A DNA stretch of 64,000 bases from Solirubrobacteraceae bacterium (GTDB lineage Bacteria; Actinomycetota; Thermoleophilia; Solirubrobacterales; Solirubrobacteraceae). Positions 408 to 29,705 of the stretch are shown in pieces (position 1 is the stretch's first letter; the number at the start of each line of letters is the position of its first letter). The stretch covers positions 4,264-68,263 of the forward strand of contig DASZHF010000126.1 of the NCBI GenBank assembly GCA_035938095.1, read 5' to 3'. A program made the position numbers and the translations under genes. A model generated the notes under the pieces. It worked only from the letters and a program-made list of their open reading frames with translations, searched no databases and was not told where the DNA came from.

Positions 408-1109
408 ATGATGCCCAGTCCCGCGCTCGACGTGCACCGATCGTCTGGTTCGGCCGCGCCCGTCGCCGATCTCGGGACGCTCCCACGTGGACCGCACAAG
501 CTCTCCCGCGAGGACGTCATCCATTCCCAGCGAAGCCGCCTCATGCGCGCGATGGCCGAAGCGATGGCAGAGCGCGGTTACGTGCATACCACGGTCGCCG
601 ATGTACTGCGTCGCGCGCGGGTCTCGCGCGAGACCTTCTACCAGCAGTTCTCGTCTAAGCAGAACTGCTTCATCGCCGTTTACGAACAATCGGCCGGGAT
701 GATCCTCGCCAACCTCGAGCAGGAGGCGGCAGCCCCGGGGACGTCGCTAGAGCGCTTCGACCGCGCGATCGGCGCCTACCTGGACGCGCTCGCCGCCGAA
801 CCCGCGTTCGCCCGTCTGTTCATGGTCGAGGTCTACTCCGCCGGCGCCGAGGCGCTGGAACGCAGGGCGGAGATCCAGCAACGGTTCACACAGCTGATGA
901 TCCAGGTCGCCGGCGCTCGTGGTCCGCGCGAGCGATTCGCCTGCGAGATGCTCGTCGCGGCGATCACGACGCTCGTCACCATGCGCCTGGCCGTGAACGA
1001 CGTCGGAGGCGTGAAGGCCCTGCGCGCACCACTCACCGGCCTCGTCCGCGAAGCTCTGTCAGGCATCGAGGTGCATAAGACTCAGGGGACATGCAGCGAC
1101 CGGGCATGA
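408..1109 (+). CDS. TetR/AcrR family transcriptional regulator
   Basis: 233-aa ORF. N-terminal HTH region RSRLMRAMAEAMAERGYVHTTVADVLRRARVSRETFYQQFSSKQNC is typical of TetR. Confidence 0.9.
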   Translation: MMPSPALDVHRSSGSAAPVADLGTLPRGPHKLSREDVIHSQRSRLMRAMAEAMAERGYVHTTVADVLRRARVSRETFYQQFSSKQNCFIAVYEQSAGMILANLEQEAAAPGTSLERFDRAIGAYLDALAAEPAFARLFMVEVYSAGAEALERRAEIQQRFTQLMIQVAGARGPRERFACEMLVAAITTLVTMRLAVNDVGGVKALRAPLTGLVREALSGIEVHKTQGTCSDRA

Positions 1110-1753
1110 CAACCGCGGAACCGGATGCCGGGCGGGAGCCGTCGGACGAGGCTCCGCGCATCGCACCCGGAACGGCAGCCGATGTCGGACGCGTGAACTA
1201 CATGCTCGCGCGCGCGATCGGGGCGGCGGGGGGCGGCGGACCACCCCACCTGTTTACGACGCTCGCCCGCCATCGACGTCTGTTCCGCCGCTGGCTGGGG
1301 TTTGCCGGCGCGCTGATGCCGGGCGGCCTGCTGCCGCGGGCCGACACCGAGCTGGTGATCCTGCGGGTCGCCCACGACACCGGGTGCGAGTACGAATGGC
1401 GCCACCACGAGCGCCTCGCGCTGACCGCCGGACTGAGCGCCGAGGAGGTGCAGCGGGTCCGCGAAGGAAACGAAGCACCGGGATGGTCGGGGCGCCAGCA
1501 GCTGCTCCTTCGCGCTGCCGACGAGCTCCACGCTGAGCGCAGCATCTCCTCCGCGCTGTGGAGCGAGCTGCGGGAGCTTATGAGCGACGCCGAGCTGATC
1601 GAGCTGTGTTTGCTGATCGGGCACTACGAGATGCTCGCAATGACACTGAAGTCGCTGCGCATCGAGCCCGATTCCCTGCCCGACGAACCGCCGCGCCTGT
1701 CCAGAGCGCTGCAGTTGGTCGTCGCTCGGCGCCAGCGGAAGAGGCGCGAGTGA
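1106..1753 (+). CDS. Carboxymuconolactone decarboxylase (AhpD-like) family protein
   Basis: Track ORF is 1091..1753. The ATG at 1106 overlaps the TetR stop (ATGA), so it is preferred. Core RVAHDTGCEYEWRHHERLALTAGLSAEEV is CMD/AhpD-like. Confidence 0.75.
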   Translation: MTTAEPDAGREPSDEAPRIAPGTAADVGRVNYMLARAIGAAGGGGPPHLFTTLARHRRLFRRWLGFAGALMPGGLLPRADTELVILRVAHDTGCEYEWRHHERLALTAGLSAEEVQRVREGNEAPGWSGRQQLLLRAADELHAERSISSALWSELRELMSDAELIELCLLIGHYEMLAMTLKSLRIEPDSLPDEPPRLSRALQLVVARRQRKRRE

Positions 1754-2607
1754 GGCGCGGGGAGGCCGACCTCGCCGGAAAGCGGGCTCTGATCACGGGC
1801 TCGGCGCGCGGGATCGGCGCGCTGCTCGCGCACCGTCTCCACGAGAGCGGCGTCCGGGTCGCGCTGCTGGGACTCGAGCCCGCTCTGCTGGCGGACGTGG
1901 CCGCGCACTGCGGCGACGCTCCCTGGTATCAGTGCGACGTCGCGAGCCGCGAACAGGTCGACGCCGCCGTGACCGACGCGGTCGCTCGTCTGGGCGGACT
2001 CGACCTGGCCGTGGCCAATGCGGGCGTCGGCGCTCAGATGACGCTGATCGGGGGCGACCCCGCGATCTGGGATGCCACCCTCGCGGTCAACCTCACCGGC
2101 ACGTACAACGTCGTCCGCGCGGCAGGACCCCACGTGTCCCATCCGGAGGGCTACTTTCTGCTCACCGCGTCGCTCGCCGCCGCCGTGCACCTGCCGCTGA
2201 TGTCCGCCTACTGCGCCTCGAAGGCCGGTGTCGAGTCGCTCGGTGACTCGCTGCGCATCGAGCTCGCTCCCAGCGGAGCGCGAGTCGGTGTCGCCTATTA
2301 CGCAGAGCTCGACACCGACATGACTTCGCGGGGTTTCGCCACCAAGGCCGCCGCCCGCACCCCCCTGGGAGGACGCCGCCGCCTCCCTGTCTCCCCCGTC
2401 GAGCCGGCGATCGACGCTCTCGAGCGGGGCATCCGCCGCCGCTCACGAAGGATCGTCTCGCCGAGATGGGTCGGCGCCGTGCTCCCCATCCGGATGCTCG
2501 CCCAACGGGTGGTCGAGCGTCAGATCAAGCCCGGACTCGGGGAGACCCTCGAGGTCGCCCGGGGCGAGGAGCCAGAGCTCACCACGGCTCAGCCGCGGGA
2601 AGACTGA
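1750..2607 (+). CDS. Short-chain dehydrogenase/reductase (SDR)
   Basis: TGSARGIGA nucleotide-binding motif and YCASKAG (YxxxK) catalytic motif. GTG at 1750 overlaps the upstream stop (GTGA). The 1558 start in the track overlaps the previous gene and is unlikely. Confidence 0.88.
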   Translation: MRRGEADLAGKRALITGSARGIGALLAHRLHESGVRVALLGLEPALLADVAAHCGDAPWYQCDVASREQVDAAVTDAVARLGGLDLAVANAGVGAQMTLIGGDPAIWDATLAVNLTGTYNVVRAAGPHVSHPEGYFLLTASLAAAVHLPLMSAYCASKAGVESLGDSLRIELAPSGARVGVAYYAELDTDMTSRGFATKAAARTPLGGRRRLPVSPVEPAIDALERGIRRRSRRIVSPRWVGAVLPIRMLAQRVVERQIKPGLGETLEVARGEEPELTTAQPRED

Positions 2608-2645: not shown

Positions 2646-3362
2646 TCAGCCCGCCGCTTCCAGTTCACTGCGCAGCACCACACCCATCAGCCGACCCTCG
2701 GGGGTGCTGACGATCGCCGTATTCAGGTCCCGCTCGGCCAGCCGGGCGGCCAAATCGCGAGCAAGAGTGTCCGCCCGCACCGTCGACGGCCCCGGCTCCA
2801 TCACCGCCTCGGCTGGCGCCTCCGCCGGCGCGGTGCGCATAACGCTGCTCCGCAGGCGACCAAGGATGACGCCGCCCTCCGTGGTCACCAACGCGAAGCC
2901 ATAGGGAGAGGACTCAACCTGCTTCCGGACCTCGCCGACGGGATCGCGGAGGCGGGAGGTGATCGCGTCGTCGTGCGCTAGGGCACCCGCCGTCGCCAGG
3001 GCCGCGTGCTCGCCTTCGATGGGTAAGCCGTGCGCGCGCCAGTCGGCCTTACCGGGCACGTAGTGGTAGACCTCGGCGAAGCCCAGCGTCTCGAGCCGAC
3101 ACGCGGCTCGCGGGCTCAAGTCTCAGAGGTAGTCGTGGCAGTAGACCACGACGGCCCGGGCCCGATCCAGTACCGCCGTCGTGTCGCCGTCGAGCGCCTT
3201 GAGGGGAATGTTGATCGCGCCGGGCAGGTGTGACTCGCGGTACTCGCGCTCCGGTAGGACATCGACCAGCTGCACGCCGGCACCTATCAGACGCTGTAGC
3301 ACGTCGAGCTCGATGCGAGTGAGGGTCACCGCCTGCTGATCGTAGAGCAGGTCGCCGAACAA
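2646..3362 (-). CDS. Rhodanese domain plus CBS-pair protein interrupted by one in-frame TGA (3123..3125); selenocysteine candidate or pseudogene
   Basis: Track ORFs 3123..3362 and 2646..3119 are in the same frame, separated only by TGA and GAC. Joined, they give one continuous rhodanese domain followed by a CBS pair. The junction reads HLPGAINIPL...VVVYCHDYL-[TGA]-DLSPRAACRLETLGFAEVYHYVPGKADWRAHGLPIEG. Confidence 0.8.
3080..3116 (-). promoter_or_regulatory. Hairpin starting 6 nt downstream of the in-frame UGA (candidate bacterial SECIS)
   Basis: mRNA sense is UGA GACUUG AGCCC G CGAGCCG CGUGU CGGCUCG AGACGCU GGGCU. This gives a 7-bp upper stem (3092..3098 with 3104..3110), a 5-nt loop and a 5-bp lower stem (3080..3084 with 3112..3116). 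Confidence 0.3.
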
Positions 3363-3504: not shown

Positions 3505-3975
3505 GTGCCACCAGGACCCGCCAGTGAGAATCGGTCGTCCCCGCACGGCTCGGTTAGTCCGTGGCTCACCCGGGTGGCCAAGGCGCTCTCACACCCGACA
3601 CGGATCGCGGTACTCCAGGCCCTCGTCAAGGGCCGAACCAGCCCTAGCAACGTGGCGTCAGCGGCTTCGGCCAGCATCGAAGTGGTCGCGTATCACGTGC
3701 GCGAGCTGCAGTCGGCGGGCCTGATCGCGGTGGCCGCGACCCAGCCCGTGCGAGGAGCCGTCGAGCACTTCTATGAGCTGACCGAGGACGGCCGCGCGGT
3801 GCTGGGCGCCCTTGAAGCTGTGCTCCGCCTCGAACCCACCCAGCGCACCAGGGACAACACGGCGCGATCGGGCCGGGCCAAGGACAACGCGTCAGGATCG
3901 CGCCGGGCCAAGGACAACGCGTCACGATCGGGCCGCGCTGGAAGAGCATCACCCCGGCGCCGCCGGCGCCCATGA
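3505..3975 (+). CDS. ArsR-family winged-helix transcriptional regulator with repetitive C-terminal tail
   Basis: LSHPTRIAVLQALVKGRTSPSNVASAASASIEVVAYHVRELQSAGLIAV...RGAVEHFYELT. Start is uncertain (GTG 3505 or GTG 3574). Paralogous to 40039..40491. Confidence 0.8.
   Translation: MPPGPASENRSSPHGSVSPWLTRVAKALSHPTRIAVLQALVKGRTSPSNVASAASASIEVVAYHVRELQSAGLIAVAATQPVRGAVEHFYELTEDGRAVLGALEAVLRLEPTQRTRDNTARSGRAKDNASGSRRAKDNASRSGRAGRASPRRRRRP
3866..3938 (+). repeat. 30-bp in-frame tandem repeat, about 2.4 copies, in the ArsR 3' end
   Basis: gatcgggccgggccaaggacaacgcgtcag, then gatcgcgccgggccaaggacaacgcgtcac, then a partial third copy. Encodes RSGRAKDNAS/GSRRAKDNAS. Confidence 0.9.
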
Positions 3976-6117: not shown

Positions 6118-7656
6118 CTAGCGGCTGCCGACGCCGACCGGCCGCGCGCCATTGACAGAGCTGGCCCGGCCGTTGCTGCTCGGGTAGTCGTGGTAGTAGC
6201 CACCGACGCCGGAATCCCGCACGCCGGTCGCGACCACGCCGAGGGTGACGCCGCGCGCAGCCTGGACCGTCGTGAGCAGCCGTCTGAACGCGTCTCGTCG
6301 CGTGACGTTGACTCGCCCCAGCAAAAGGACGCCGGAGACCTGGTCGAGCAGGGGTATCGCGTCGCTCACGGCGAGCATGGGACTCGTGTCTATTACGACG
6401 ATGTCCGACATCTGCTCCAGTCGTTGCAGCAGCTCGCGCATGCGGCGGGAATTGAGCAGCTCGGACGGGTTCGGCGGCGCTGTGCTCGAGGGCATCACGC
6501 GCAGGCGTCCATCGCCCACCGGCACCTCGACCTCGGCGAGGACCTCCTCCAGCGTCGCTTCGCCCACGAGGACGTTGCCCATCCCGCCGCTCGTCCTCAA
6601 CTCCAGGCGCTCCGCGATCTGCGGTTTGCGCAGATCGGCATCGACGAGCACAACGTTCTTGCCCCCCCGGGCGAGCGCTCGAGCCAGGTTGATCGCTACG
6701 GTCGTCTTGCCATCGTCGCGGGCCGGGCTGGTCACCAGGACGCTCGATACGACGCGATCGATGTTGAAGTACATCAGCGCCGCGCGCAGCGTTTGGAAGG
6801 CTTCGAAGGCTCGCGCCGGAGCGTTCCGGGGCTGGGCGAAGGCCGACTTGGGGATCGTGGCCAGGAGTGGTCGCCCGGTCAGCTCCTCGAGCTCCTCCTG
6901 ACGGCGAACGCGCCGATCGAGATTCTGGGCGAGGGCCACGAGACCGCCGCCGATGAGCACGGCCACCACGAGAGCCAGCAGCGCGCTCCGAGTGGGTCTT
7001 GGCGAGACGGGCTGGCCGGAGGCGATGGCAGGTTCCACCACCGCGGCGTTGCTTCCCTGAGCGGCGAGCAGGGCGCGAAAGCGCTGCAGCTGGGCCGATA
7101 GCTGCTGGCGCTGGACGGAGTCTGATCGTCGGACGCTGTCAAGTTGCTGACGCAGGGCGATGATCGTTTGATGCACCTGACCGCGCGCAGCTCGAACCCG
7201 GCCTGCGACTACTGCGTTGGCAAAGGCGTTCGCCACCGCCGCCGCGCGAGTGGCCGACGATGCTTGCGCGGTGATCGTGATGAAGCCGATGTCGTCGGCG
7301 GTCGCGGTGATGGTGCCCAGGAGCGCGCGGGGGTTGTGCGGATGTGGGTTGAGCAGTTGAGCGGCGGCCCGTGCCACATCAGTCGTCTGGATCAGCCGAG
7401 CCGCCGTCTGCGTTGCCTGTGGCTGGGTCGGCGGTGGCGTGCCCTGGATCAGCGAGGTGTCCACTGGATCCGCCTGCACGCGCATCAACGCCGAGGCCTG
7501 GTACACCTTCCGGTTAGACGCGGAGAGGTAGTACGCGCCTGCGGGCAGTAGAAGCACGCAGGCCAGGAACAGAAGCTTCCAACGCCAGAACGCCTTGCCC
7601 GTCGCGCGTAGGTCGATGCTGTCGGCCGCCGGGGAATGGGGCGAGCGCGTGCTCAT
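6118..7656 (-). CDS. Polysaccharide chain-length determinant (Wzz) fused to a BY-type tyrosine kinase (CpsD/CapB-like)
   Basis: N-terminal TM plus Wzz-like coiled region. Walker A is VTSPARDDGKTTV, A' is VVLVDADLRKP and Walker B is IVVIDTSP. Short Tyr-containing tail GGYYHDYPSS. The ATG overlaps the upstream stop (ATGA). Confidence 0.9.
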   Translation of the reverse strand: MSTRSPHSPAADSIDLRATGKAFWRWKLLFLACVLLLPAGAYYLSASNRKVYQASALMRVQADPVDTSLIQGTPPPTQPQATQTAARLIQTTDVARAAAQLLNPHPHNPRALLGTITATADDIGFITITAQASSATRAAAVANAFANAVVAGRVRAARGQVHQTIIALRQQLDSVRRSDSVQRQQLSAQLQRFRALLAAQGSNAAVVEPAIASGQPVSPRPTRSALLALVVAVLIGGGLVALAQNLDRRVRRQEELEELTGRPLLATIPKSAFAQPRNAPARAFEAFQTLRAALMYFNIDRVVSSVLVTSPARDDGKTTVAINLARALARGGKNVVLVDADLRKPQIAERLELRTSGGMGNVLVGEATLEEVLAEVEVPVGDGRLRVMPSSTAPPNPSELLNSRRMRELLQRLEQMSDIVVIDTSPMLAVSDAIPLLDQVSGVLLLGRVNVTRRDAFRRLLTTVQAARGVTLGVVATGVRDSGVGGYYHDYPSSNGRASSVNGARPVGVGSR

Positions 7657-8951
7657 GCGCGCGCTGCTGACGTAAGTGCGATTGGACTTGGTGCCGCGGG
7701 CGAGCCGAGCGGGAGCGCTCCGCTTTCGGGGGCTCGTTGCTTCTCAGAGGTCGAGCGCAGGACGACAACCGCGCACAACGCCAGCACGACGACATGCGTT
7801 CGATAGCGGTACGCGGTTCCCGCGTTACCCGCGCTCAGCGCGTACGCGATGAGCATCGCGAAGGCGACATGCAGGAACGGACCGGCGCCCCGGAAGATGT
7901 GACCCCGGCGACGGATGGCCGCCGCTGTTCCGAGGCCCAGCGCCAGCAGTGCGACGAGCGTCCCGAGCACTCCAAGCTGCTGGCTCGTGTTGGCGACCTG
8001 CCACGGATACGGCCTGGTCACGATGTCGGCGATCCGCTGGGGAAGGTTGCCGATTACGGCGCCCCGCGAAGAGAAGTCGACTCGTTCGAGCTTGAGGTTT
8101 GACGCGTCGGATGCGTTGGCATCCTGCGATGACTGGAGATTGGCCTTCAACTGGGCGGGAGTCGTCGCCTGAAGGACGGTCGGCGTGGTGGCGATCGCCA
8201 GACCGGCCACGGCCAGAATGAGCACTCCCGAGCTCGCCCAATTCCGCCCGGAGCCACGCGCCGCGCTATGCAGCGCGATGGCCGCCGCGGCGGCGATCAG
8301 GAACCAGCCCGCGTAACGGCGCGTAGCCACCGCGATCAGGCAACCCGCCGCCATGGGGAGCAGCGAGGTTGGCCGCCCGCGCCGCCACAGCTGCACGCCT
8401 CCGAACACGACCAGGCCCTCGGCCAGGTACATGAGAGGCTCCTTGTGCAGGAGGCTCGAGAAGAAGATGCTGGCGGGCTCGAGCGCCAGCACCCACGCCG
8501 CGATCCGCGCCGCGCGCCGTCCAGCCAGGTCATAGACGGCCGCCGCCATGAGCATCAGCCCGGCCATGGTGATCGTGACCTGGGTGATGCGAAGCGCCAG
8601 CTCGGGCGCGTCAAACGCCCGGATCTGGAGTGCGAACACCCACTTGTAGAGGCTTCCGGTCAGCGCGTCGGTCCACGCTGCGCTGGTAACCGACGTGGCC
8701 GCCAGCGCGTGAGACTGCGATAGGAACGCCAGCTCGTCGCCGCCGCGCAGGCTCTGCGCCAGCGGCGTCAGCGTCACACCGACCGCCGCCAGGACACGCA
8801 CCAGGAATCCCACGAGGAGCGGCGTCGCGATGTTCAGCGACGGGCGCGCGGCGCGCAGACGGTGCAGGAGGAGGTAGCCAGCGTAGGCGGCCAGAAGGAC
8901 GACGAGCAGGACGCACTCGGCGTTGTAGAGGCTGATGTCGTCGAGCCTCAC
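7653..8951 (-). CDS. Polytopic membrane protein, GT-C-like glycosyltransferase or polymerase candidate
   Basis: 432 aa with about 10 or more hydrophobic helices. First loop has an acidic motif RGGDELAF. Start and stop are both coupled to the neighbouring genes (GTGA and ATGA overlaps). Function is inferred only from topology and context. Confidence 0.7.
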   Translation of the reverse strand: MRLDDISLYNAECVLLVVLLAAYAGYLLLHRLRAARPSLNIATPLLVGFLVRVLAAVGVTLTPLAQSLRGGDELAFLSQSHALAATSVTSAAWTDALTGSLYKWVFALQIRAFDAPELALRITQVTITMAGLMLMAAAVYDLAGRRAARIAAWVLALEPASIFFSSLLHKEPLMYLAEGLVVFGGVQLWRRGRPTSLLPMAAGCLIAVATRRYAGWFLIAAAAAIALHSAARGSGRNWASSGVLILAVAGLAIATTPTVLQATTPAQLKANLQSSQDANASDASNLKLERVDFSSRGAVIGNLPQRIADIVTRPYPWQVANTSQQLGVLGTLVALLALGLGTAAAIRRRGHIFRGAGPFLHVAFAMLIAYALSAGNAGTAYRYRTHVVVLALCAVVVLRSTSEKQRAPESGALPLGSPAAPSPIALTSAARA

Positions 8952-9835
8952 GCCCGAGCACCCACCGCGTGCTCCGGATGACCGGGCTCAGATGACATCG
9001 CCGAAGCGAGCAGGCTCGAGAACGCGTCGGTTCGCTTCGGATGGACGAAGACGTAGTTGGCCTCGACGATCGGACCGGGCGAGATCAACCGCCGGACGGG
9101 CTGCTGCTCATAGCGGAAGAGCTCATATCCACGCTGAGCGAGAAACGTGGTCACGCTCTCGGGCCTGAGGCCAAAGCCCTCCAGAAACCAAGGGTTGATC
9201 TCGCAGACGATCGTCGGCTGGTGCCGATCGATCATGCGTGTCGCGCCGCGCAGCGCAGCGAGTTCAGCGCCTTCGATGTCGAGTTTGATGAGCGAGACAG
9301 GCGCGTCGGACGGAACGGTGTCATCCAGCGTCGCCAGTGGGCAGGCAACCTCCTGGCTGTCGAGCCAATGCACATGCTGGCCGCGGCCGGGCCGGTCGTC
9401 CTGACGGTCGGCAGAATGGGCCTGCCCCGCGCTGATCGCCCCCGACCGCTGCAGCGGGATCCTGAACTGCGCTGTCCCGGGCGCCTCGGCGCAGCCCTTG
9501 GCCACAACCTCGACGTTGTTCATGCGGAGCAATCGGATGATCGTCCGTAGGGCCCCGACCGTGAAAGGGATCGGCTCAAAGCACCAGACCCGCCCCGTCG
9601 GCCCCACCCCGCGGGACAGCGGGTACGCCCACATGCCGTAGTTGGCGCCGACGTCGATCACGGTGTCGCCTTCACGCACCCCGAGCGCGACGAGGTCGAT
9701 CTCGGGCTCGCTGAGCACTCCACGTCGGATATCGCGCGCCATCGCGGTCGCTTGGATGTAGCCGTACCCGCCGTGAGCCACTAGCGGTGCCAGCGATCGC
9801 TTGACGACCCGGCGCATGATGGAGTTCGGCGGCAT
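8948..9835 (-). CDS. FkbM-family SAM-dependent methyltransferase
   Basis: VIDVGANYGMWAYPLS and IKLDIEGAELAALRGA motifs typical of FkbM methyltransferases. Confidence 0.85.
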   Translation of the reverse strand: MPPNSIMRRVVKRSLAPLVAHGGYGYIQATAMARDIRRGVLSEPEIDLVALGVREGDTVIDVGANYGMWAYPLSRGVGPTGRVWCFEPIPFTVGALRTIIRLLRMNNVEVVAKGCAEAPGTAQFRIPLQRSGAISAGQAHSADRQDDRPGRGQHVHWLDSQEVACPLATLDDTVPSDAPVSLIKLDIEGAELAALRGATRMIDRHQPTIVCEINPWFLEGFGLRPESVTTFLAQRGYELFRYEQQPVRRLISPGPIVEANYVFVHPKRTDAFSSLLASAMSSEPGHPEHAVGARA

Positions 9836-9838
9836 CGG

Positions 9839-10915
9839 TCAGGAAGCCGCGGCGAGCGCCCGCTCGATGTCGGTGACGTGGAAGTTGGCCGTCGGGACGT
9901 CGTACTGCCCGGGAGACAGACAGGCCGGGATCGAGACACCTTCGCGGAGCCGGTCCAGCAGCTCGCGGATCAGCTCCCGGTTCGCTGGCGAGCCTTCACG
10001 TTCCAGACGCCGCTCGATGACAGCAGCGAGGTCGCCATTGCCCGTCGCCTGCACGATGTGGAAGAGGCTCTGCAGGTAGTCCTCGTTTGGCCCACGAGGA
10101 AACTCCTCACGCTCCCTGATGGCGGCAAAGCCGCTCTCGACGGGGTAGAAGTCGAAGGTGTCGGCAACCGTCACGTCGAGGCGACGAGCCAGGCCGGTCC
10201 GGACGGCGACGGCCCGCAGGGTCTCCCGATGGCGGGACACGATTCGCAGGTGCTTGAGCGAGTCCTTCCAAGTACGCTGCGATCGGCTGCTCCAGAGGCA
10301 GATGGTGACCGTCAGCGACGCTGGGTACATCGGCAGGTGAGCGACGTAGGCGTCGACGAACGCCACCTCCCCCAGCCCATGGACGCCACGCTCGATCAGA
10401 TCGGTCGCATATATCCCAGCGTCGCGATCGACCAGCCGGGGTTGGCTCAGCAACCAGTGTCCGTATCCCGGGCCAAACGCCGTCGCGGTGGTCAGCAGTA
10501 GCTCGCCGTGATGGTGAATCGCCTTGGTCGAGAGGTCTGTGTCCCCACCGGGCAGTGGAATCCAGCAATTCACCACCAGCTCGTAGAGAGGGTTCGATTC
10601 GAGCTCCATCGCGAGGACCGGATAGTGCGTTCGCGACAGGGCGTCCGGCGCCTCGAGATGATGCGCGAGCGAGGCGGCCAGAAACGACGGATCGCGCGCC
10701 GCCTCGGCCATGATCGAAGCCGCCGAGCGATGGGCGTCGTGCTTGGTGGCCGCGGCCTCGAAGATCGCGTTTAGCCGGCTTACATATCCGGCCAGGTTCG
10801 TCGCGTGCGAGGCCGTGGCGTTCGCGCCGTGCGAGCCCGTGCTCGTAGTGTCGCGGGCGTCGGCGATGGTGCTCGGCATGGCGCGCGGGACGGGTGGTGA
10901 CGCGCCCAGCGACAT
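9839..10915 (-). CDS. Hypothetical protein, first gene of the 10915 to 5395 operon; His-rich patch IHHHGE
   Basis: 358-aa ORF with GC-rich third positions and a 3-nt gap to the next gene. I recognise no family. Confidence 0.65.
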   Translation of the reverse strand: MSLGASPPVPRAMPSTIADARDTTSTGSHGANATASHATNLAGYVSRLNAIFEAAATKHDAHRSAASIMAEAARDPSFLAASLAHHLEAPDALSRTHYPVLAMELESNPLYELVVNCWIPLPGGDTDLSTKAIHHHGELLLTTATAFGPGYGHWLLSQPRLVDRDAGIYATDLIERGVHGLGEVAFVDAYVAHLPMYPASLTVTICLWSSRSQRTWKDSLKHLRIVSRHRETLRAVAVRTGLARRLDVTVADTFDFYPVESGFAAIREREEFPRGPNEDYLQSLFHIVQATGNGDLAAVIERRLEREGSPANRELIRELLDRLREGVSIPACLSPGQYDVPTANFHVTDIERALAAAS

Positions 10916-10959
10916 GGCGGCCAGCGTCGTTCATGCGCGGAAGAGCGTCAGGAGTCATA

Positions 10960-10977
10960 GGTAAGAGCCCGGTAAGA
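10960..10977 (-). promoter_or_regulatory. Two exact TCTTACC heptamers 11 nt apart, upstream of 9839..10915
   Basis: The plus strand reads GGTAAGAgcccGGTAAGA (10960..10966 and 10971..10977), 45 to 62 nt upstream of the ATG at 10915. Confidence 0.4.
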
Positions 10978-11071
10978 CCGCTGCGGGTACTGCGCGGTCG
11001 CGCGAGTAAACCTGCACGTCTAGCCGCGTAGCCGTCCTCGGTGATCCGCTGGCTGTGATCCTCGCGATCGC

Positions 11072-12031
11072 ATGATCACACCCGAGCGCGTGCTCGCAAT
11101 CACGATCGACACCGAGGTCGACAAGTCTTCGTCTTGGCGCATAGCGACGCCGCCCACCTTCCGTTCCGTGACGGAGGGGATCCCGCAACTCCTCCAACCG
11201 CTCTTCTCCTCGTGCGGGGCGAGGCCTACCTACCTTCTGAGCCCCGAGGTGATCGAGGACGACGACTCAACGGCCGTGCTCTCGAGTCTGGGTCCGGAAG
11301 CCGAGCTGGGAACGCACCTGCATGCCGAATTCGTGTCTCCTGAGCGCCGCCTGGTCGCCGCCAGCATGGGAGGGCAGCACGCGAACGCATTGCAGTGCCA
11401 GTGCCCGCCCGGAATCGAGCTCGCCAAGTTGAAGGCGCTGACCTACCTGTTCGAGAGGCGCTTCGGCTACCGGCCGACCTCATTTCGCGCCGGTCGCTAC
11501 GCGCTAGGAGACAGCACGCTCGCGCATCTGGCTGGGCTCGGCTACGCCGCAGATTCGAGTATCACGCCCGGCCTGCGTTGGAACTACGCCGAGGGCGTTG
11601 TCGACCACCGCAGGCACTGCGCAGGTCCATCGGTCGTGCGCACGGACGCGGGCCCGATAGTCGAGCTTCCGATCAGCGTTCGACCCGGCGGCGTGGCGGC
11701 CCCGACGGTGGACAGGTTGCCCTCGCCGGTGAGCCGAGCCGCGCGAGCGGTGCTCGGCGACCGAGCGCGCTACCTGTGGCTCCGTCCGAGCTGGGAGAGC
11801 GGCCGGTCGTTGATCCGCTACGTCGAGTCCTCCGCGGAGACCGTCCTGGTGCTCATGTTTCACAGCACCGAGATCATCCCGGGGGCAAGTCCGTTCGCCG
11901 CCACTGTGTCGGACGTTGGCCGGATCGCGGCGGCGCTGCACGACCTGCTCGCTCACTGCGCCCGGGTCGGAATCAGGTGCGTCGGGCTGACAGACGCCGC
12001 CGCGCTGATCAGGGAGGCAGGCGACCGGTGA
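11072..12031 (+). CDS. Polysaccharide deacetylase-like (WalW-like beta/alpha-barrel) protein
   Basis: LAITIDTEVD...ARPTYLLSPEVIED...GTHLHAEF resembles the glycoside hydrolase/deacetylase superfamily. Assignment is from memory of the family. Confidence 0.6.
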   Translation: MITPERVLAITIDTEVDKSSSWRIATPPTFRSVTEGIPQLLQPLFSSCGARPTYLLSPEVIEDDDSTAVLSSLGPEAELGTHLHAEFVSPERRLVAASMGGQHANALQCQCPPGIELAKLKALTYLFERRFGYRPTSFRAGRYALGDSTLAHLAGLGYAADSSITPGLRWNYAEGVVDHRRHCAGPSVVRTDAGPIVELPISVRPGGVAAPTVDRLPSPVSRAARAVLGDRARYLWLRPSWESGRSLIRYVESSAETVLVLMFHSTEIIPGASPFAATVSDVGRIAAALHDLLAHCARVGIRCVGLTDAAALIREAGDR

Positions 12032-12921
12032 ACCGGTGCGCCCTCTGCGACGGCGTACCCGGCCGCGACGCGTTTCCGTTCGCGTTTCGGTGGAATCGCC
12101 AGGTTTATCGTCATCTGCGCTGCCCACGGTGTGACGCGGTCGTCGTGACGCCGATACCAACCGACGCCGAGTTGCGGCGCGTATATGAATGGACGGCGTA
12201 TCACGCGGTCCATTACCCGACGGACCGCTCGGAGCGGTACCGGCGGACGATGGCCGCTCTCCAGCGCTTCACGCGACCTCCGGGACGGGTGCTCGACTTC
12301 GGCGCGGGCACCGGCGTGCTACTCCAGCGCCTCCTCGAAGCCGGCTATGAGGCCCACGGACTGGAGTACGAGCAATCAGTTGTCACGCGGTTGCGGGCCA
12401 GGACCCCGGCGCCGGTCTGGGAGCTGGCGTCTCTGATGGGCGCCGATCTGAAGTTCGACGCGATCGTCATGCATGACGTCCTGGCCCACCTCCCCGGCCC
12501 CGCTGACACGCTGCGAGCGCTCGAGCACATCCTGGCCGCCGACGGCGTCATGGTCGTCGCCGGTCCCCTCGAGGAGAACCCGAGCCTGGTCCACTCGATC
12601 GCGCGCCTGTGGCGCCACTTGCGGGGTGAGCGCCTCAGCGCCGGCCTACCTGCCGTTCCGCCCACCATGCTCGTGCGCACCGACCACCGATCGATGAGGC
12701 GGTTCTTCGACGTCGTGATGGGCTACGACGAACTCGCCTTCGAAGTACTCGAGGATGGCTGGCCGTATCGGGTCGCCGGGCGGCGGCCGTCATCGGTTCG
12801 CGACCTGGTGCGCCACCTGGTCGGTCTGATGGCCGTTGGGCTTCACCGTGGTCTGTCGGTACTTAGCGTTCCCGTTGGCAACCGTTTCGTCGCTGTGTAT
12901 CGGCCGTGTCCGAGCCCCTAG
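12028..12921 (+). CDS. Class I SAM-dependent methyltransferase with N-terminal CxxC...CxxC zinc ribbon
   Basis: GTG at 12028 overlaps the upstream stop (GTGA). CALCDG...CPRCD, then VLDFGAGTGVLLQRLLEAGYEAHGLE and DAIVMHDVLAHL. The track lists this as the 3' part of the 508-aa ORF 11395..12921. Confidence 0.85.
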   Translation: MNRCALCDGVPGRDAFPFAFRWNRQVYRHLRCPRCDAVVVTPIPTDAELRRVYEWTAYHAVHYPTDRSERYRRTMAALQRFTRPPGRVLDFGAGTGVLLQRLLEAGYEAHGLEYEQSVVTRLRARTPAPVWELASLMGADLKFDAIVMHDVLAHLPGPADTLRALEHILAADGVMVVAGPLEENPSLVHSIARLWRHLRGERLSAGLPAVPPTMLVRTDHRSMRRFFDVVMGYDELAFEVLEDGWPYRVAGRRPSSVRDLVRHLVGLMAVGLHRGLSVLSVPVGNRFVAVYRPCPSP

Positions 12922-14129
12922 CGGTAACCCCGATGGGTGACGTCGGCGCGGTCTCGAGGCCCAGCCCGTGGAGGCAGCGCCACCGCATCCTCTTCGTAAT
13001 CGAGAGCCTGGGCGCCGCCGGCGCGGAGTACGCGCTGCTGACGCTGGGTCGCGAGCTGCATGGCCGTGGACACGCCGTTCACGTTGCTGTGCTCGCCCCG
13101 CCCTACGACCTGTGCGCCGACTTCGAATCCGCTGGGCTCGTGGTGCACCGCCTCGAGCGCGGTCGGGCTCGCGGGGCGGCCGAACTGGCGCGCCTGACCC
13201 GCGCGCTCGATGCCACGGTCGTCCACGCGCATCTGTTTTGGGCCGGAGCGCTCACGGCTCTCAGCGGGTCGCTCGCGCGCGGGCCTGCCCGGATAGCGAC
13301 GTTTCACAACCTTGGCTACTCGAGCTATCCGCCGGTGACCCTGCGCCGGAAGCTTCGCCGCGCCGGCGATCGGTTCGCGATGCGACATGGCATGGATGGC
13401 TGGGTTGCGGTCAGCTCGGCCGTGGCCCGCCACTACGGCGAGCACCTCGGGCTGACGCCCATCCGGGTGATCCCGAATCCGCTCGATCTGCCCGCGCTGG
13501 ACCGGCATGCGCATACCGATCCGGCCGGTGTCCGACGTCGGCATGGCCTCCCCCAGGACCGGCCGGTGATCGTCTGCGCCGCAACCCTGCGCCCCGAGAA
13601 GGGGCACTCCGTGCTGCTGGCGGCGCTCGCCCGGCTGCGCGCGCAGGGGTTGAAAGCGGTGACGGTTCTGGCGGGCCACGGGCCCCTGCGGGCGCCGATC
13701 GAGCAGCAGATCGCGGCTCTGGGACTGGGCCCTGAGGTCCGGCTGCTCGGTCGCCTTCCGCGCGATGCGCTGCTCGATCTTCTGGGTGCCGCCGATCTCG
13801 CCGTCCTGTCATCGCTGCACGAGGGTCTCAGCATGTCTGCGGCCGAGTCGATCGCGCTGGGTACGCCCGTGGTGGCCTCGAAGACGGGCGGCCTCGAGGA
13901 CATCGTCGAGGAGGGGTCAACCGGCTTGCTCGTCCGACCGGGCGATCCTGACGCTCTCGCGACCGCACTGGCGCGGGCCCTGATCGACGCGCCGTGGGAG
14001 CAGGTTCTCAGCCCATCGGTGTTGGCGCCGCTGCGGGACCGCCTGGCCAGTCCGGCTGTCGCCCAGGCCCACGAGTCGCTCTACACCGCGCTCGCACGAC
14101 GACGGGAGCTCGCCACCGCTCGCGCCTAA
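12906..14129 (+). CDS. GT-B glycosyltransferase (family 4-like)
   Basis: ILFVIESLGAAGAE N-terminus and EGLSMSAAESIALGTPVVASKTGGLEDIV (EX7E region). Confidence 0.9.
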   Translation: MSEPLAVTPMGDVGAVSRPSPWRQRHRILFVIESLGAAGAEYALLTLGRELHGRGHAVHVAVLAPPYDLCADFESAGLVVHRLERGRARGAAELARLTRALDATVVHAHLFWAGALTALSGSLARGPARIATFHNLGYSSYPPVTLRRKLRRAGDRFAMRHGMDGWVAVSSAVARHYGEHLGLTPIRVIPNPLDLPALDRHAHTDPAGVRRRHGLPQDRPVIVCAATLRPEKGHSVLLAALARLRAQGLKAVTVLAGHGPLRAPIEQQIAALGLGPEVRLLGRLPRDALLDLLGAADLAVLSSLHEGLSMSAAESIALGTPVVASKTGGLEDIVEEGSTGLLVRPGDPDALATALARALIDAPWEQVLSPSVLAPLRDRLASPAVAQAHESLYTALARRRELATARA

Positions 14130-14170
14130 GCGCCGAGCTACCAGCGCCAGGCTTCGATCCGGGCCCAGAC

Positions 14171-15520
14171 ATGTCGACCCAACCCGCTACCCCACCCGCG
14201 CCGATCGACCGCGCCACCCCGACAGACGCCTACGAGACGGGCCTAAGGCTGCTTCCGGTCAGGGCGCTGCAGTATGCCTCTTTGTTCCTGGCGGGCCTGG
14301 TCGTCGCTCGCGCCCTCGGCCCCGCGGCCCGTGCCCAGTACGCGTTGCCGCTCACCCTCGTGTCGGCGGTCTGGGTCGTCGTCCACCTGTCGCTGGACGA
14401 CGTCGCCGGACGGATGCTCGGACGGGGTCAGGCCACGTTGCCGCAGCTCAGCCGCCTGCTATCGGCCGCAACCATCCCGGTATCGGTGGTGGGCGCGCTC
14501 GCGAGCCTCGGCCTGGGGATCGCCGTCCGCAACGAGTCGCTGGCCGGGGCCAGCCCCTTGGTGATCGCCTTGGCGACCGCCACCGTGCCGGCCGCCGTCG
14601 TGTACCAGATGACCGGCGGCCTGCTGCTGCGGATCGGGAGAATCCGGCTGTTCACCTGGACCCTGGCGGCTCAGGCGGTGGTTCAGCTCGCGGGTGTCGC
14701 CGCCCTGCAGGTTGGGCTCGGCCTGACGCCGGCCCTGGCGCTACTCGGCCTGCTGGGAGGCTACGTCGTTGCCGATGCCGCGCTTGTGCGCGGCCTCGCC
14801 AGGCACGTCGGCTGGCGCGGCCTGCTTCCGGGCGTTCCGCCTGGACTCCCCGGTCGTGCTCTCCGGACCGCGAGCGGGCTTCATCCGGGCACGCTCTGCA
14901 ACTACCTCAACTACAGGATCGACCTGCTCCTGGTGGGAACACTGGTCAGCGCGCGCCAGGCCGGCTTGTACTCGCTGTCGACAGCGCTTGCCGAGCTGGT
15001 GCTCGCCGGGACGACCGCACTCAACCAGGCCGTGATAGCCGATCAGACGGCACTGGCTCCACAAGAAGCCGTGCGGGCGACGCTTGCCTTCGTGCGCCGG
15101 ACGCTCAAGCTCGTCCTGGGAGCCGCGGCGCTGCTCTGCGTGGGCGCGTATCCGTTCGTGCTCGTCGTCTACGGGCCCGCGTGGGCGGGAAGCGTCCCCG
15201 CCCTCATGATCCTCACCGTCGCAGCCATCGCGCCGGCGATCGCCGGTCCGTTCAACGTCATGCTCGCGCGCCTGATCCGGCCCGCCACGCTTTCGGCCGC
15301 CGCCGCCAGCGGGCTACTGGTCAACGTGGTCGCAAACCTGCTCCTGATTCCCCGGCTCGGTATCGCGGGTGCGGCGCTCGCCTCGGTCGCCTCGTACTGG
15401 TCCTGGTCGATCGTGCTGATGGTGTTGTTCGCCCGCGCAACCGGAACGTCGCCGCTCAACCTGCTCTTCGCGCGAGCGCAGGCGCCTCACGCCGCCGCGG
15501 CGGGGGTCATACGCGGATAG
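14171..15520 (+). CDS. Wzx-like oligosaccharide flippase (polysaccharide biosynthesis protein, MOP superfamily)
   Basis: About 12 to 14 TM helices. The ATG at 14171 (MSTQPATPP) is preferred over the 13994 start, which overlaps the GT gene. Confidence 0.8.
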   Translation: MSTQPATPPAPIDRATPTDAYETGLRLLPVRALQYASLFLAGLVVARALGPAARAQYALPLTLVSAVWVVVHLSLDDVAGRMLGRGQATLPQLSRLLSAATIPVSVVGALASLGLGIAVRNESLAGASPLVIALATATVPAAVVYQMTGGLLLRIGRIRLFTWTLAAQAVVQLAGVAALQVGLGLTPALALLGLLGGYVVADAALVRGLARHVGWRGLLPGVPPGLPGRALRTASGLHPGTLCNYLNYRIDLLLVGTLVSARQAGLYSLSTALAELVLAGTTALNQAVIADQTALAPQEAVRATLAFVRRTLKLVLGAAALLCVGAYPFVLVVYGPAWAGSVPALMILTVAAIAPAIAGPFNVMLARLIRPATLSAAAASGLLVNVVANLLLIPRLGIAGAALASVASYWSWSIVLMVLFARATGTSPLNLLFARAQAPHAAAAGVIRG

Positions 15521-16860
15521 GGGTCCCCGCGCTCCTCGAGATGGCCGGTGATCCCCCGATGGAGGAGCCGCTGGCCGCCGGCCAACCAGTCCCGCCAGCA
15601 CCTCTGGCCCTGCCCCGCGATCTCATCGGCCGGGATGTCGCCGCGCTCGACCTCGCGAAGGATGCCTGCAACGTCCGTGAGGTCGGGACGGCAGAAGATC
15701 GCGTTGTGACGATCGGCGAACGGATACATCGTCTCAACATGCGAGAGGTCCTGGCAGATGAGAGGCCGGCGCACGATGAATGCTTCCGCGTGACGGAATG
15801 TGATCTCCCCGAAGCCCGCTGGGGCCAAGACCACCCCGCTGCGCGCAAGCGACCGCGTGAAGGCCGGTCGGCTCATGGGCGGCGAGCCCAAGTTGCTCCT
15901 GCGCAGGGCCTCTCCCAGCGCCCTGACCGTCTGCGGAGGCACCCTGACCGCCACGCCGTCGGCGGTGACCAGCGCCGGGGGATCGCCGGGCTCAGCCGGA
16001 TCCTCCTCGGGCGGTGGGGTGCGTAGATCGTGCTCTTCGAGACGCTCCTCGACGGGGCCGGGGCGGTCGCGGGTGTCGCTCCGCTCGAGAGCACCGGTCC
16101 CGTAGAAGTCTTCGGGGACCCGCGTGATCGCCTGGGAGCCGGGGACGCCGGCCGAGCGCAGGATCTCGAGAAGGTCGAGTCGCTGCCGGTGCGTCAGCGT
16201 GCCGACGAAGTGGGCGGTGAGGTGCTTGGGCCTGCGCAGACGCACGAGCGGCAGGCTCGCTTGCACAGCCGCCTCGGCGGCTAGCCGCGCGTAGGTTTCC
16301 AGTCGCCGGTGGGGACGCTCGACCAGGCGGATCCTGTGGCGCGTCCGAGCGTCTATGGCCAGGAAGCAGGGGACGGACAGCCGCAGCTTCTCCAGCTGGG
16401 CGTGCGTGTAGCGAACCCTGCGCGATTCGATCGCCGCGGTCCAGTTGGCTCCGGCGAAGAAGGGGCCGACCCGATAGTTGTAGAGCTCCCGATCGCGATA
16501 GATGCCCTGTCCCTTGAGCACCAGATCGACGCGGTCCAGAGCGCCCGGCGGCAGCGAGAGGCTGAACAGGTCGTGCCCCTCCAGGGCCACGATCCGGTCG
16601 GCCATGCGGCGCAGACGCTCGAACACCGGGTCGACTCGATCGGGGTGGCGCGCCGCCAGCCACTTGTACCAGTCGCTCGAGACGAGCACCACATCGAATC
16701 TGTCGGAGCGGGCCAAGCCACAGGGGTTCGGCGACCAATCCAGGCCCAGATCACGTGCGTCGACGGTCCCCATCGACAACCCCGGCGCGATGCGTACAAG
16801 CTGAACGAACCAAGACGACGCCGAGACCGTCAGCAGGCAGCACTTCACGGGGAACGCCAC
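15487..16860 (-). CDS. Hypothetical protein, possible CgeB/GT-B-like glycosyltransferase with an acidic Pro-rich insert
   Basis: The C-terminal GFGEITFRHAEAFIVRRPLICQD resembles the RxFE region of CgeB-like GT-B enzymes. Insert is RTPPPEEDPAEPGDPP. Start is uncertain (16860 or ATG 16773). Confidence 0.6.
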   Translation of the reverse strand: MAFPVKCCLLTVSASSWFVQLVRIAPGLSMGTVDARDLGLDWSPNPCGLARSDRFDVVLVSSDWYKWLAARHPDRVDPVFERLRRMADRIVALEGHDLFSLSLPPGALDRVDLVLKGQGIYRDRELYNYRVGPFFAGANWTAAIESRRVRYTHAQLEKLRLSVPCFLAIDARTRHRIRLVERPHRRLETYARLAAEAAVQASLPLVRLRRPKHLTAHFVGTLTHRQRLDLLEILRSAGVPGSQAITRVPEDFYGTGALERSDTRDRPGPVEERLEEHDLRTPPPEEDPAEPGDPPALVTADGVAVRVPPQTVRALGEALRRSNLGSPPMSRPAFTRSLARSGVVLAPAGFGEITFRHAEAFIVRRPLICQDLSHVETMYPFADRHNAIFCRPDLTDVAGILREVERGDIPADEIAGQGQRCWRDWLAGGQRLLHRGITGHLEERGDPYPRMTPAAAA

Positions 16861-20247: not shown

Positions 20248-22116
20248 GTGTGTGGGATAGCTGGAGTCCTCTCCTTCGGAGCTCGTCCGCCGGACCTGGC
20301 GCTCGACGAGCAGCTGAAGCTCCTGGTGCACCGCGGACCGGACTCGACCGGGCTTCACTCCGAGGGCCGGGGGGCGATCGGTCAGACACGGTTGGCCGTG
20401 ATCGATCTCGAGACCGGAGACCCTCCAATCCTCAACGAGGGCGGGACGATCGTCGCCGCGCTCAACGGCGAGATCTACAACTTCCGGACGCTGCGCTCCG
20501 AGCTGGTCCGCACCGGACACCGGTTCCGGTCCTCGGGAGACACAGAAGTGCTGGTTCACCTGGCCGAGGAACGTGCGCCGGTCGAGATCGCCAGGCTGGT
20601 GGACGGCATGTTCGCTTTCGCGCTCTGGGACGCCGAGCGCGAGCGGCTGGTGCTGGCCCGCGATCGAGTCGGCAAGAAGCCTCTCTACTTCTGTCAGACC
20701 TCCGAGGCTCTCGTGTTCGGCAGCGAGATCAAAAGCGTCCTGGCACACCCGTCCGTCCCGCGCGAGCTCGAGCCGCTCGCGCTGTCCGCCTATCTGACGT
20801 TCGGGTACGTGCCAACCCCGCGCACCTTCTTCGCCGGAGTCTCCAGCCTTCCACCCGGTCACATCCTGATCGCGTCGGCCGACGGACAGGTTGCGATCGA
20901 GCCGTTCTGGTCGCTGCCCTCGCCCCCGCCGCGCCCGACCCCGCGGACTCTCGCGCAGGCCGCCGTCGAAACCCGTGAGCACCTGACGCGCGCCGTCGAG
21001 CGACGGCTCATATCCGACGTTCCGCTCGGCGCGTTCCTGAGCGGCGGGCTGGACTCGGCGACCGTCGTGGCGCTGATGGCCTCGCTGTCCGATCGTCCGG
21101 TCAAGACGTTCACGATCGGGTTCGACGACCGGTACGGATTCGACGAGCGCCCCTACGCTGGGCTCGTCGCCCGGCGATTCGCCACCGAGCACCAGGAATT
21201 CGTGGTGCAGCCCGACGCGGTGGACCTGGTCGAGCGACTCGTCTGGCACCACGATCAACCGTTCGGCGACTCGAGCGCCGTCCCGACGTTCCTGCTCAGT
21301 CAGGTGACCCGTGATCACGTCACAGTGGCTCTGGCGGGCGATGGGGGCGACGAGCTCTTCGCCGGCTATGAGCGGTTCTGGGCGGCCCTGGCCCTGGGCC
21401 GGTACCAAGCGCTCCCGCGACCGCTGCGCACCGGTCTGCGGGCCGGGGTCGGCCGCCTCCCTGCGACTGCCCTTCACGGACGGGTGGGGAGCATGCAGCG
21501 CTTCACTCGACAGGGAAACGCCCGCGTGCTCGACGCGTACCGCTCGTGGCTCTCCTTCTTCGACGAGCCCCAGCGCAGCGAGCTGCTCCCGGGCGCAAGC
21601 GCGTGGGCGCTCGAGGACTACGAGCGCAGGTGGTCCGAGGGCGGCAACGGCGGGCTGTTGGACCGCCTCTTGCATCTCAACCTGACGACCTACCTGCCCG
21701 ATGACCTGCTCGTGAAGGTCGACCGCACCAGCATGGCGCACGGGCTCGAGGTGCGATCGCCGTTTCTCGACGCCGAGCTCGTCGCCTTCGCCTTCCAGCT
21801 CGCGCCCGAGCTCAAGCTCCGCCGCCTGACGCTCAAGCGCGTGCTCAAGGAGGCGATGCGCGAGCTGCTGCCCGCCGAGATCGTCGGCCGTCGCAAGAAG
21901 GGGTTCGGCGTGCCGCTCGATCGCTGGTTTCGCGAGGACCTCCGCGGCTACGTCGGCGCGCGCCTGGGCGCCCGCGATGCCAGAGTCAAGGCTCATCTGT
22001 CGGCGCCGATCGTCGATCGACTGCTGGCCGAGCATCTGGCGGGCGGGAAGGATCATGGACAGGCCCTCTGGCTGCTGCTCACGCTCGAGGTGTTCCTGCG
22101 CAATCAGGGGTGGTAG
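20248..22116 (+). CDS. asnB: Asparagine synthase (glutamine-hydrolysing) family amidotransferase
   Basis: N-terminal MCGIAGV (Cys nucleophile), GDTEVL and SGGLDSATV (PP-loop). In a glycan locus it more likely amidates a sugar acid than makes asparagine (inference). Confidence 0.9.
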   Translation: MCGIAGVLSFGARPPDLALDEQLKLLVHRGPDSTGLHSEGRGAIGQTRLAVIDLETGDPPILNEGGTIVAALNGEIYNFRTLRSELVRTGHRFRSSGDTEVLVHLAEERAPVEIARLVDGMFAFALWDAERERLVLARDRVGKKPLYFCQTSEALVFGSEIKSVLAHPSVPRELEPLALSAYLTFGYVPTPRTFFAGVSSLPPGHILIASADGQVAIEPFWSLPSPPPRPTPRTLAQAAVETREHLTRAVERRLISDVPLGAFLSGGLDSATVVALMASLSDRPVKTFTIGFDDRYGFDERPYAGLVARRFATEHQEFVVQPDAVDLVERLVWHHDQPFGDSSAVPTFLLSQVTRDHVTVALAGDGGDELFAGYERFWAALALGRYQALPRPLRTGLRAGVGRLPATALHGRVGSMQRFTRQGNARVLDAYRSWLSFFDEPQRSELLPGASAWALEDYERRWSEGGNGGLLDRLLHLNLTTYLPDDLLVKVDRTSMAHGLEVRSPFLDAELVAFAFQLAPELKLRRLTLKRVLKEAMRELLPAEIVGRRKKGFGVPLDRWFREDLRGYVGARLGARDARVKAHLSAPIVDRLLAEHLAGGKDHGQALWLLLTLEVFLRNQGW

Positions 22117-23209: not shown

Positions 23210-23221
23210 TCCGGTCCCACG

Positions 23222-23311
23222 CCACCCGGCTGTCCCACACCACCCGGCTGTCCCCCGCCGCCCGGCTGCCCCAGGCCACCCGGGCGCCCCGCGCGACCCG
23301 GGCTCGTCCCC
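23222..23311. repeat. Five degenerate 18-bp tandem repeats (ccacccggctgtcccaca type)
   Basis: The core ccacccggctgt recurs at 23222 and 23240. Degenerate copies are at 23258, 23276 and 23294, giving an exact 18-nt period. The array lies between the GT stop (23314) and the methyltransferase zinc ribbon. Confidence 0.85.
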
Positions 23312-23313
23312 GG

Positions 23314-24555: not shown

Positions 24556-24557
24556 CG

Positions 24558-25625: not shown

Positions 25626-25793
25626 GACGTCAGGGCCGGGCGATCGCTTCTCTCAGGACGCCGCGGCGTCGGGGCGGGGAACCACTCGTACAAAAGCGGT
25701 CCCCTTCCCATGAGCGAGGCTGCAACGGCGCCCACCCCTTGAACCACGATTGCGTCGCGCGCCCGGGGGTCCGCCCGGGCGAGCGCTCAGAGA

Positions 25794-26204: not shown

Positions 26205-26231
26205 GGCGGGGAAGATTGCGCTCCCTCACTC

Positions 26232-29690: not shown

Positions 29691-29705
29691 AACCCCACGG
29701 ATTCG

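Follow-up and report, generated by a model that had tools for sequence, protein, structure and literature searches.

What is a stop codon doing in the middle of a rhodanese active-site loop? The question is raised by a 64,000-nt stretch of DNA from a Solirubrobacteraceae bacterium (assembly GCA_035938095.1, contig DASZHF010000126.1, positions 4,264 to 68,263; hereafter the window), where a minus-strand gene of 238 codons at 2646..3362 encodes a rhodanese domain followed by a pair of CBS domains and is interrupted once, in frame, by UGA at 3123..3125. Judging from the comparison of this sequence with its relatives, the UGA is very probably recoded to selenocysteine (Sec) in a SelB-dependent manner, directed by a bacterial selenocysteine insertion sequence (bSECIS) lying just downstream in the message. 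The locus is, in all likelihood, one intact gene for a selenoprotein of ~24 kDa.

The arrangement of the reading frame is simple. According to the list of open reading frames (ORFs) and the translation of the frame itself, the ORFs at 3123..3362 and 2646..3119 of the minus strand share one frame and are split solely by the TGA at 3123..3125. Across the junction the minus strand reads GTC GTG GTC TAC TGC CAC GAC TAC CTC TGA GAC TTG AGC CCG CGA GCC GCG TGT CGG CTC GAG, which translates as VVVYCHDYL*DLSPRAACRLETLGF. Translation would begin at a TTG at 3362, although the start is uncertain, as an alternative GTG at 3329 would give an N-terminal part of 68 codons, as in relatives; full-length homologues measure 220-235 aa. 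The gene's own terminator is also a TGA (2646..2648), so a genome-wide reassignment of this codon does not account for the interruption. In the 238-codon numbering, the rhodanese catalytic Cys is residue 75 (TGC, 3138..3140), and the proposed Sec, residue 80, stands where a CxxxxC active-site loop has its second Cys.

The domain content indicates that the two ORFs form one coding unit. A rhodanese homology domain (PF00581, 48.5 bits against a cutoff of 22.2, E = 1.3e-12) occupies residues 21-110 (3033..3302, minus strand) and spans the UGA. A CBS pair, or Bateman module, is placed at about residues 125-238 (2649..2990, minus strand) by a weak PF00571 match to residues 185-234, by a structural model and by Foldseek; the hidden Markov model (HMM) scores for CBS are borderline, at 23.0-24.7 bits against a cutoff of 24. 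The structure was predicted with AlphaFold2 for P0001, which is the closest Cys-type homologue (72% identical to the window protein), from 48 aligned sequences. The resulting model (predicted local distance difference test score 97.2, predicted template-modelling score 0.88) shows an alpha/beta rhodanese domain with two CBS beta-alpha-beta-beta-alpha repeats after it. Foldseek searches of the PDB matched its N-terminal half to BH2092 of Bacillus halodurans (3nhv, 3o3w; probability 1.00, root-mean-square deviation 1.6 A over 107 residues, 30% identity) and its C-terminal half to the nucleotide-binding CBS pairs of MgtE, AcuB, KpsF and OpuCA, with TM-target scores of 0.7-0.8 for the first three. 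No solved structure combining a rhodanese domain with a CBS pair was found by Foldseek in the PDB.

BH2092 is the closest solved structure by sequence (E = 1.9e-10) as well as by fold, and it fixes the position of the UGA within the active site. The sequence alignment pairs YCWDYLCDMSPRAA with YCWGPACNGATKAA, and every column of that BH2092 loop has its counterpart in YCWDYL[C/U]DMSPRAA of the family, from which it follows that the proposed Sec takes the place of the second Cys of the CxxxxC loop, five residues past the catalytic Cys. BH2092 itself differs in having Cys rather than Sec and in lacking a CBS pair; it is a Firmicutes protein and a structural-genomics target of unknown function. 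On the evidence of the predicted model and this alignment, the product is shown to be a single-domain CxxxxC-type rhodanese, here C-H-D-Y-L-U, with a C-terminal CBS pair. A sequence-only reading of the locus had already proposed a single gene split by one in-frame TGA, with the codon at the second-Cys position. Both proposals hold up: PF00581 runs across the TGA, Cys-type homologues are continuous, and both the homologues and BH2092 (3nhv, YCWGPAC) have Cys at that point.

The codon in this column was read directly in 80 fetched loci from species-representative genomes of Solirubrobacterales, Thermoleophilaceae, Gaiellales, Miltoncostaeaceae, Pseudonocardia, Actinomycetospora, Micromonospora, Dehalococcoidia and Anaerolineae, representing two phyla. 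TGA was found in 76 of the 80, TGC in three and TGT in one (locus L012, position 10211), with neither TAA nor TAG in any; the window is a further TGA. Orthologues thus have either TGA or a Cys codon here, and the loop aligns cleanly. No other in-frame stops occur in the TGA-type genes. The codon for the catalytic Cys is TGC in all 77 TGA-type sequences, and that Cys is invariant in the protein alignments. The nearest species-level locus is 74% identical, and the window protein shares a 90% cluster with the protein HEV3229399.1.

Protein databases give a more confusing picture of the same genes. Searches returned two classes of homologue, namely full-length rhodanese-CBS proteins of ~225 aa and many diverged "CBS-only" proteins of ~157 aa, which are 67-81% identical, all start at MSPR and are truncated at the same point as the window gene. 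In the protein alignment, most full-length homologues have Cys in the TGA column, whereas the four closest show "W" and a single one shows "S". The Trp residues in the JGI proteins reflect TGA translated with another genetic code, as seen directly for protein P0003 (locus L081, 727..729), and P0004-P0006 probably represent the same mistranslation; it appears that JGI/IMG chose an alternative code for short contigs and thereby placed spurious "full-length" Trp proteins in public collections. The Ser is a genuine TCA codon, one base off TGA, with the downstream hairpin intact (locus L082, ~8199).

The second line of evidence is that hairpin, which lies within the coding sequence at 3092..3110 of the minus strand, beginning 12 nt past the UGA and covering codons +5 to +11. 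It has a stem of seven Watson-Crick pairs (CGAGCCG/CGGCUCG), a 5-nt loop (C-G-U-G-U), a UGA-to-loop distance of 19 nt and a folding energy of -10.8 kcal/mol. The published bSECIS model specifies a loop of 3-9 nt, a stem of 4-16 bp, a UGA-to-loop distance of 16-37 nt and a minimum free energy at or below -7.5 kcal/mol, together with a G within the first two loop positions that is usually followed by G or U (PMC13188914). The window hairpin agrees with the published criteria on all four counts. An Rfam scan of the window and 83 loci at gathering thresholds returned no match to a SECIS family, and in the window it returned no Rfam family of any kind. Taken together, the gene presents an in-frame UGA flanked by conservation, a Sec/Cys pair with UGA orthologues and a bSECIS stem-loop.

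What carries most weight is the behavior of the hairpin across species. The element CGAGCCG-CGUGC-CGGCUCG, 12 nt past the UGA, is near-invariant in the 77 TGA-type sequences, synonymous sites included: Arg at +5 is CGA in 66 of 77, Ala at +6 is GCC and Ala at +7 is GCG in all 77, Arg at +9 is likewise always CGG, and Leu at +10 is CTC in 73. For comparison, CGA makes up just 5-14% of codons at other Arg positions, and comparable fourfold-degenerate sites elsewhere in the gene show an entropy of 1.2-1.8 bits. In an alignment of 78 distinct sequences (A2), 99.1% of the cells in the 7-bp stem are paired, and those changes that do occur mostly preserve pairing as G.U (nine of them A to G, four C to U), with only five cells that break the stem (A to C three times, G to C twice). 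To judge from these frozen synonymous sites, the hairpin is under selection at the RNA level.

The sequence-only reading had described a taller structure, with a 5-bp lower stem below the 7-bp upper one. The upper stem and its CGUGU loop stand as described, at 3092..3110, but relatives do not conserve the lower one: the corresponding alignment columns (9-14 with 43-48) are paired in 83% of cells, 41 of 78 sequences carry a mismatch at one particular pair, and the pairing is no better than in shuffles. The proposal of Sec at the UGA, made at the same time, has fared better, being supported by the conservation of the TGA, the agreement of the hairpin with the bSECIS model and the freezing of its synonymous sites.

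Genes that have exchanged the TGA for a sense codon offer a natural comparison. The hairpin has decayed in the Cys-type loci L041, L046, L048 and L083, which read RAAA or RAAR with other synonymous codons. It has been kept in L012 (TGT) and L082 (TCA), which suggests that in these two Sec was replaced recently. Set side by side, the two groups show an order of events in which Sec is lost first and the SECIS decays afterwards. A related signature is seen in the loop itself, where the UGY codon at +8 (UGU at 3099..3101 in the window) specifies the Cys of the RAAC sequence; this Cys is present in 91% of Sec-type genes versus 29% of Cys-type genes and is therefore probably imposed by RNA structure and not by protein function.

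The genomic surroundings of the gene in relatives also point toward selenium. In 18 Solirubrobacterales loci, a full-length selD lies directly downstream in a convergent, tail-to-tail orientation (e.g., L025, 10747..11679, minus strand), and the encoded SelD proteins are ~46% identical to that of E. coli with a Cys-type site, HGAGCxCK. These loci share a block of HIT, rhodanese-CBS, selD, DedA-like and pyrophosphatase-like genes whose proteins are 47-97% identical. An older survey reported the selenouridine trait to be absent from Actinobacteria and Chloroflexi (PMC1794560), so that SelD in these groups usually marks the use of Sec. In Actinomycetospora chiangmaiensis, SelA, SelB and SelD were detected or expressed along with a selenium-dependent formate dehydrogenase and functional Sec decoding (PMC7176365), and two of its congeners, A. 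lemnae (L054) and A. cinnamomea (L056), have the present gene in its TGA form.

Further partners are found upstream, on the same strand. A gene for a protein of ~105 aa lies directly upstream in 27 loci, in all major taxa of both phyla and beside Sec-type and Cys-type genes alike, and its product is a Cys-type member (FDGCP...KCRLY) of NF049942, the "DF family (seleno)protein" (110.5 bits against a cutoff of 70). This family was founded on one Sec-containing protein from Desulfosediminicola flagellatus (PMC12013277). In 18 loci, a Cys-containing ArsR/SmtB metalloregulator (NF033788, 86.8 bits) lies upstream of the DF gene, and nine loci encode a small membrane protein in which the motif VVCCAGLP occurs. 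Same-strand sets of ArsR/SmtB regulator, VVCCAGLP membrane protein, DF-family protein and rhodanese-CBS protein (L011, 9046..10000 with the TGA at 10211; L014; L086, 8759..9997; and about 24 further loci) have the appearance of an operon in these relatives. Two other assignments were considered for the region and dropped: the CC-motif membrane protein as MerT/MerF, which had no HMM support, and a minus-strand ArsR gene placed near -320 in many loci, which proved to be an artefact of reading the DF-family gene in antisense in DNA of high GC content.

Several observations weigh against a Sec-based reading and the function that might be attached to it. The machinery was sought with tblastn, using E. 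coli SelA, SelB and SelD, and with ARAGORN for tRNA genes, on the window and 83 loci; selA, selB and tRNA-Sec were found neither in the 64-kb window nor in any fetched locus, and the window has no tRNA gene of any kind. The window also lacks the DF-family gene, the ArsR/SmtB set and selD, and the adjacency to selD, being limited to one clade, may reflect a single ancestral arrangement. At the RNA level, there were no double compensatory substitutions in the upper stem across the 78 distinct sequences; the stem barely varies, so the RNA support consists of conservation and not of covariation. The 69 nt after the TGA fold at -25.7 kcal/mol, which is ordinary for their composition (z = -0.46 against shuffled sequences), and an equally good perfect hairpin, suitably spaced, would arise by chance at ~1% of positions in a window of 69.6% GC. 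For this reason the weight of evidence comes from the cross-species comparison and not from the single hairpin. Finally, the biochemical role is deduced solely from domain identity and neighbors.

Among the competing explanations, the one that survives best is read-through of the UGA without selenium. In this case, a near-cognate Trp or Cys would be inserted with stimulation by the hairpin, or the codon would be decoded by a tRNA-Sec-like tRNA(Cys) with the anticodon UCA, a tRNA reportedly described by Mukai and colleagues. In its favor, downstream hairpins can promote read-through in general, and selA, selB and selC were not found in the window or the fetched loci. However, the hairpin fits the SelB-type bSECIS geometry down to the G-U of the loop, the column alternates with Cys only (plus the one TCA), selD adjoins the gene in 18 relatives, and Sec decoding in Actinomycetospora is experimental (PMC7176365). 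Selenium-free read-through is accordingly regarded as improbable.

More improbable still is the suggestion that two genes are translated separately, with a rhodanese fragment of 68-79 aa ending at the UGA and a CBS protein restarting downstream. A restart could be imagined at codon +2, which is TTG in the window and ATG in 32 relatives, and databases do carry a fragment of 153-158 aa as a "CBS domain-containing protein". The break would nevertheless fall inside the rhodanese active-site loop, leaving the last helix and strand of that domain in the "CBS" protein. Moreover, codon +2 is CTC, CTG, CTA or ATC in 40 of the 79 TGA-type genes, and the nearest in-frame start in those 40 lies 12 or more codons on, within conserved rhodanese sequence; with no usable start near the junction in so many genes, the distal part cannot be an independent gene, and no relative was found to have a separate CBS gene. 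The stop is also always TGA, and Cys-type homologues are continuous.

The idea of a recent nonsense mutation or of a sequencing or assembly error, raised as an alternative in the sequence-only reading and implying a pseudogene or an ordinary Cys gene, would need a single base change from TGC or TGT and has the existence of Cys-type homologues in its favor, but it can be dismissed for practical purposes, given that 76 of 80 independent species-level assemblies share this TGA, as do many metagenome contigs, that the sequence past it remains under selection at both the protein and RNA levels, and that no further in-frame stop has accumulated.

If Sec is indeed inserted, a mechanism can be sketched. 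SelB, carrying Sec-tRNA(Sec), would be brought to the ribosome at the UGA by the hairpin at 3092..3110, whose loop includes G-U and is spaced 19 nt from that codon. In the protein, Cys75 might carry a persulfide, a perselenide or another chalcogen or soft-metal adduct, and Sec80, at the other end of the active-site loop, might act as a resolving or relay nucleophile through a transient Cys-S-Se-Sec bond; both roles are tentative. The CBS pair, for its part, is predicted, again tentatively, to gate activity on an adenine-nucleotide-type ligand.

As to the pathway served, the operon partners and the selD that adjoins the gene in one clade hint at the handling of chalcogens or thiophilic metals, or at selenium trafficking and supply to SelD, though this assignment is held with low confidence. 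The fullest version of the proposal is a Cys75/Sec80 selenenylsulfide relay, gated by nucleotide through the CBS pair, in a dedicated chalcogen or soft-metal module that delivers selenium to the adjacent SelD in some lineages. As a complete package this must be considered doubtful. Were it true, the module would bring the rhodanese-CBS selenoprotein together with a sensor of the ArsR/SmtB type, the membrane protein with the CC motif and a thiol protein of the DF family. A precedent of sorts exists, in that a rhodanese perselenide supported selenophosphate synthesis in vitro with the bovine enzyme (Ogasawara, Lacourciere & Stadtman 2001, as cited in PMC5877670). Bovine rhodanese can carry selenium for SelD on its active-site Cys and has no Sec residue, and the tie between the rhodanese-CBS gene and selD is one of genomic position only, in one clade.

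A Sec-containing rhodanese is not in itself as unusual as the sequence-only reading had supposed. A 2026 catalogue of prokaryotic selenoproteins lists five rhodanese-type forms, namely UxxS, UxxG, CxU (NF041203), a second UxxG, and TsoB with UxxxxU (NF045694), and its account of the rhodanese forms makes no mention of CxxxxU, CBS domains, Actinobacteria or Solirubrobacterales (PMC13188914). A search of one literature library found no publication joining selenoprotein, rhodanese and CBS domain. The first four forms, including the UxxS protein of Geobacter (WP_010941598.1), resemble the present family in that their Sec, directed by a SECIS, lies within or close to the active-site loop of a rhodanese domain, and in having been found by Sec/Cys-pair bioinformatics. 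They differ in their motifs and in their sources, which are Deltaproteobacteria and marine metagenomes, and neither a CBS pair nor CxxxxU has been described for them. The distinction from form 1 is provisional, as the U-D-L-S of the window protein literally fits UxxS and the Sec column may coincide. Assignment to NF041203 ("rhodanese_LYCAU", CxU) was rejected at 26.2 bits against a cutoff of 115, the motif here being CxxxxU.

The nearest conceptual relative is TsoB (Haft & Tolstoy 2025, as listed in PMC13188914), which has Sec in its rhodanese loop with the same x4 spacing and is the second-best NCBIfam match to the rhodanese-CBS protein (E = 5.6e-10). Its operon likewise encodes an ArsR/SmtB-type regulator, TsoR, together with other (seleno)proteins, and the relatives' regulator scores 51.5 bits against the TsoR model. 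The rhodanese-CBS protein keeps Cys at the catalytic position and adds a CBS pair, whereas TsoB, at ~570 aa, carries two Sec residues, one at each position of the motif, and is joined to a DsbD-like membrane domain. Membership in NF045694 was accordingly rejected, at 37.9 bits against a cutoff of 805, with no DsbD-like domain and with Cys at the first position.

In the window, the gene's immediate neighbors are of other kinds. Divergent from it on the plus strand is a winged-helix, ArsR-like regulator lacking Cys (3505..3975; HTH_20, PF12840, 39.7 bits), mentioned here for context only; its C-terminal tail (3812..3975) contains a low-complexity direct peptide repeat, SGRAKDNASGSRRAKDNASRSGRAG. 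Downstream, on the strand opposite to the selenoprotein gene, lie genes for a TetR regulator (408..1109), a CMD/AhpD-like carboxymuconolactone decarboxylase family protein (1091..1753) and a short-chain dehydrogenase (SDR, 1558..2607). CMD/AhpD-like families include selenoproteins elsewhere, and the copy at 1091..1753 has no in-frame TGA. Further along, a Wzz/tyrosine-kinase-like chain-length determinant is recognized by HMM at 6118..7656, and by eye the regions 6118..16860 and 20248..31711, with their large membrane and glycosyltransferase-like ORFs, look like exopolysaccharide or cell-envelope biosynthesis that appears unrelated.

Taken as a whole, the rhodanese-CBS selenoproteins appear to constitute a genuine and widespread family that is seemingly uncatalogued. 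NCBI, UniProt and JGI label the C-terminal fragment as a "CBS domain-containing protein" in Pseudonocardia, Actinomycetospora and Solirubrobacteraceae, from which it follows that current pipelines do not recognize the family. The annotation error is systematic, with RefSeq, GenBank, UniProt and IMG either splitting the gene or reading the UGA as Trp, and a new "exception" model would be the remedy. New bacterial selenoprotein families turn up regularly by the same logic; the present one is distinguished by its breadth, the position of its Sec, its dual-coding SECIS and its testability, as the cultured carriers Pseudonocardia and Actinomycetospora make the Sec prediction directly testable.

For the biology of these organisms, the finding would have several consequences. 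If true, it would add a sixth, structurally distinct rhodanese selenoprotein form, in which Sec takes the resolving position instead of the catalytic one and a CBS pair is attached, and it would extend the range of selenoproteins to abundant aerobic soil Actinomycetota (Thermoleophilia, Pseudonocardiaceae and Micromonosporaceae) and to Chloroflexota. The family also offers a clear case of dual RNA and protein constraint, in which a SECIS inside the coding region shapes the protein through the Cys of RAAC. Its linkage to the DF family, to a metalloregulator and, in one clade, to selD provides a functional lead for two families of unknown role, and, should the proposed relay prove correct, this would be a selenoprotein that itself helps to supply selenium for selenoprotein synthesis.

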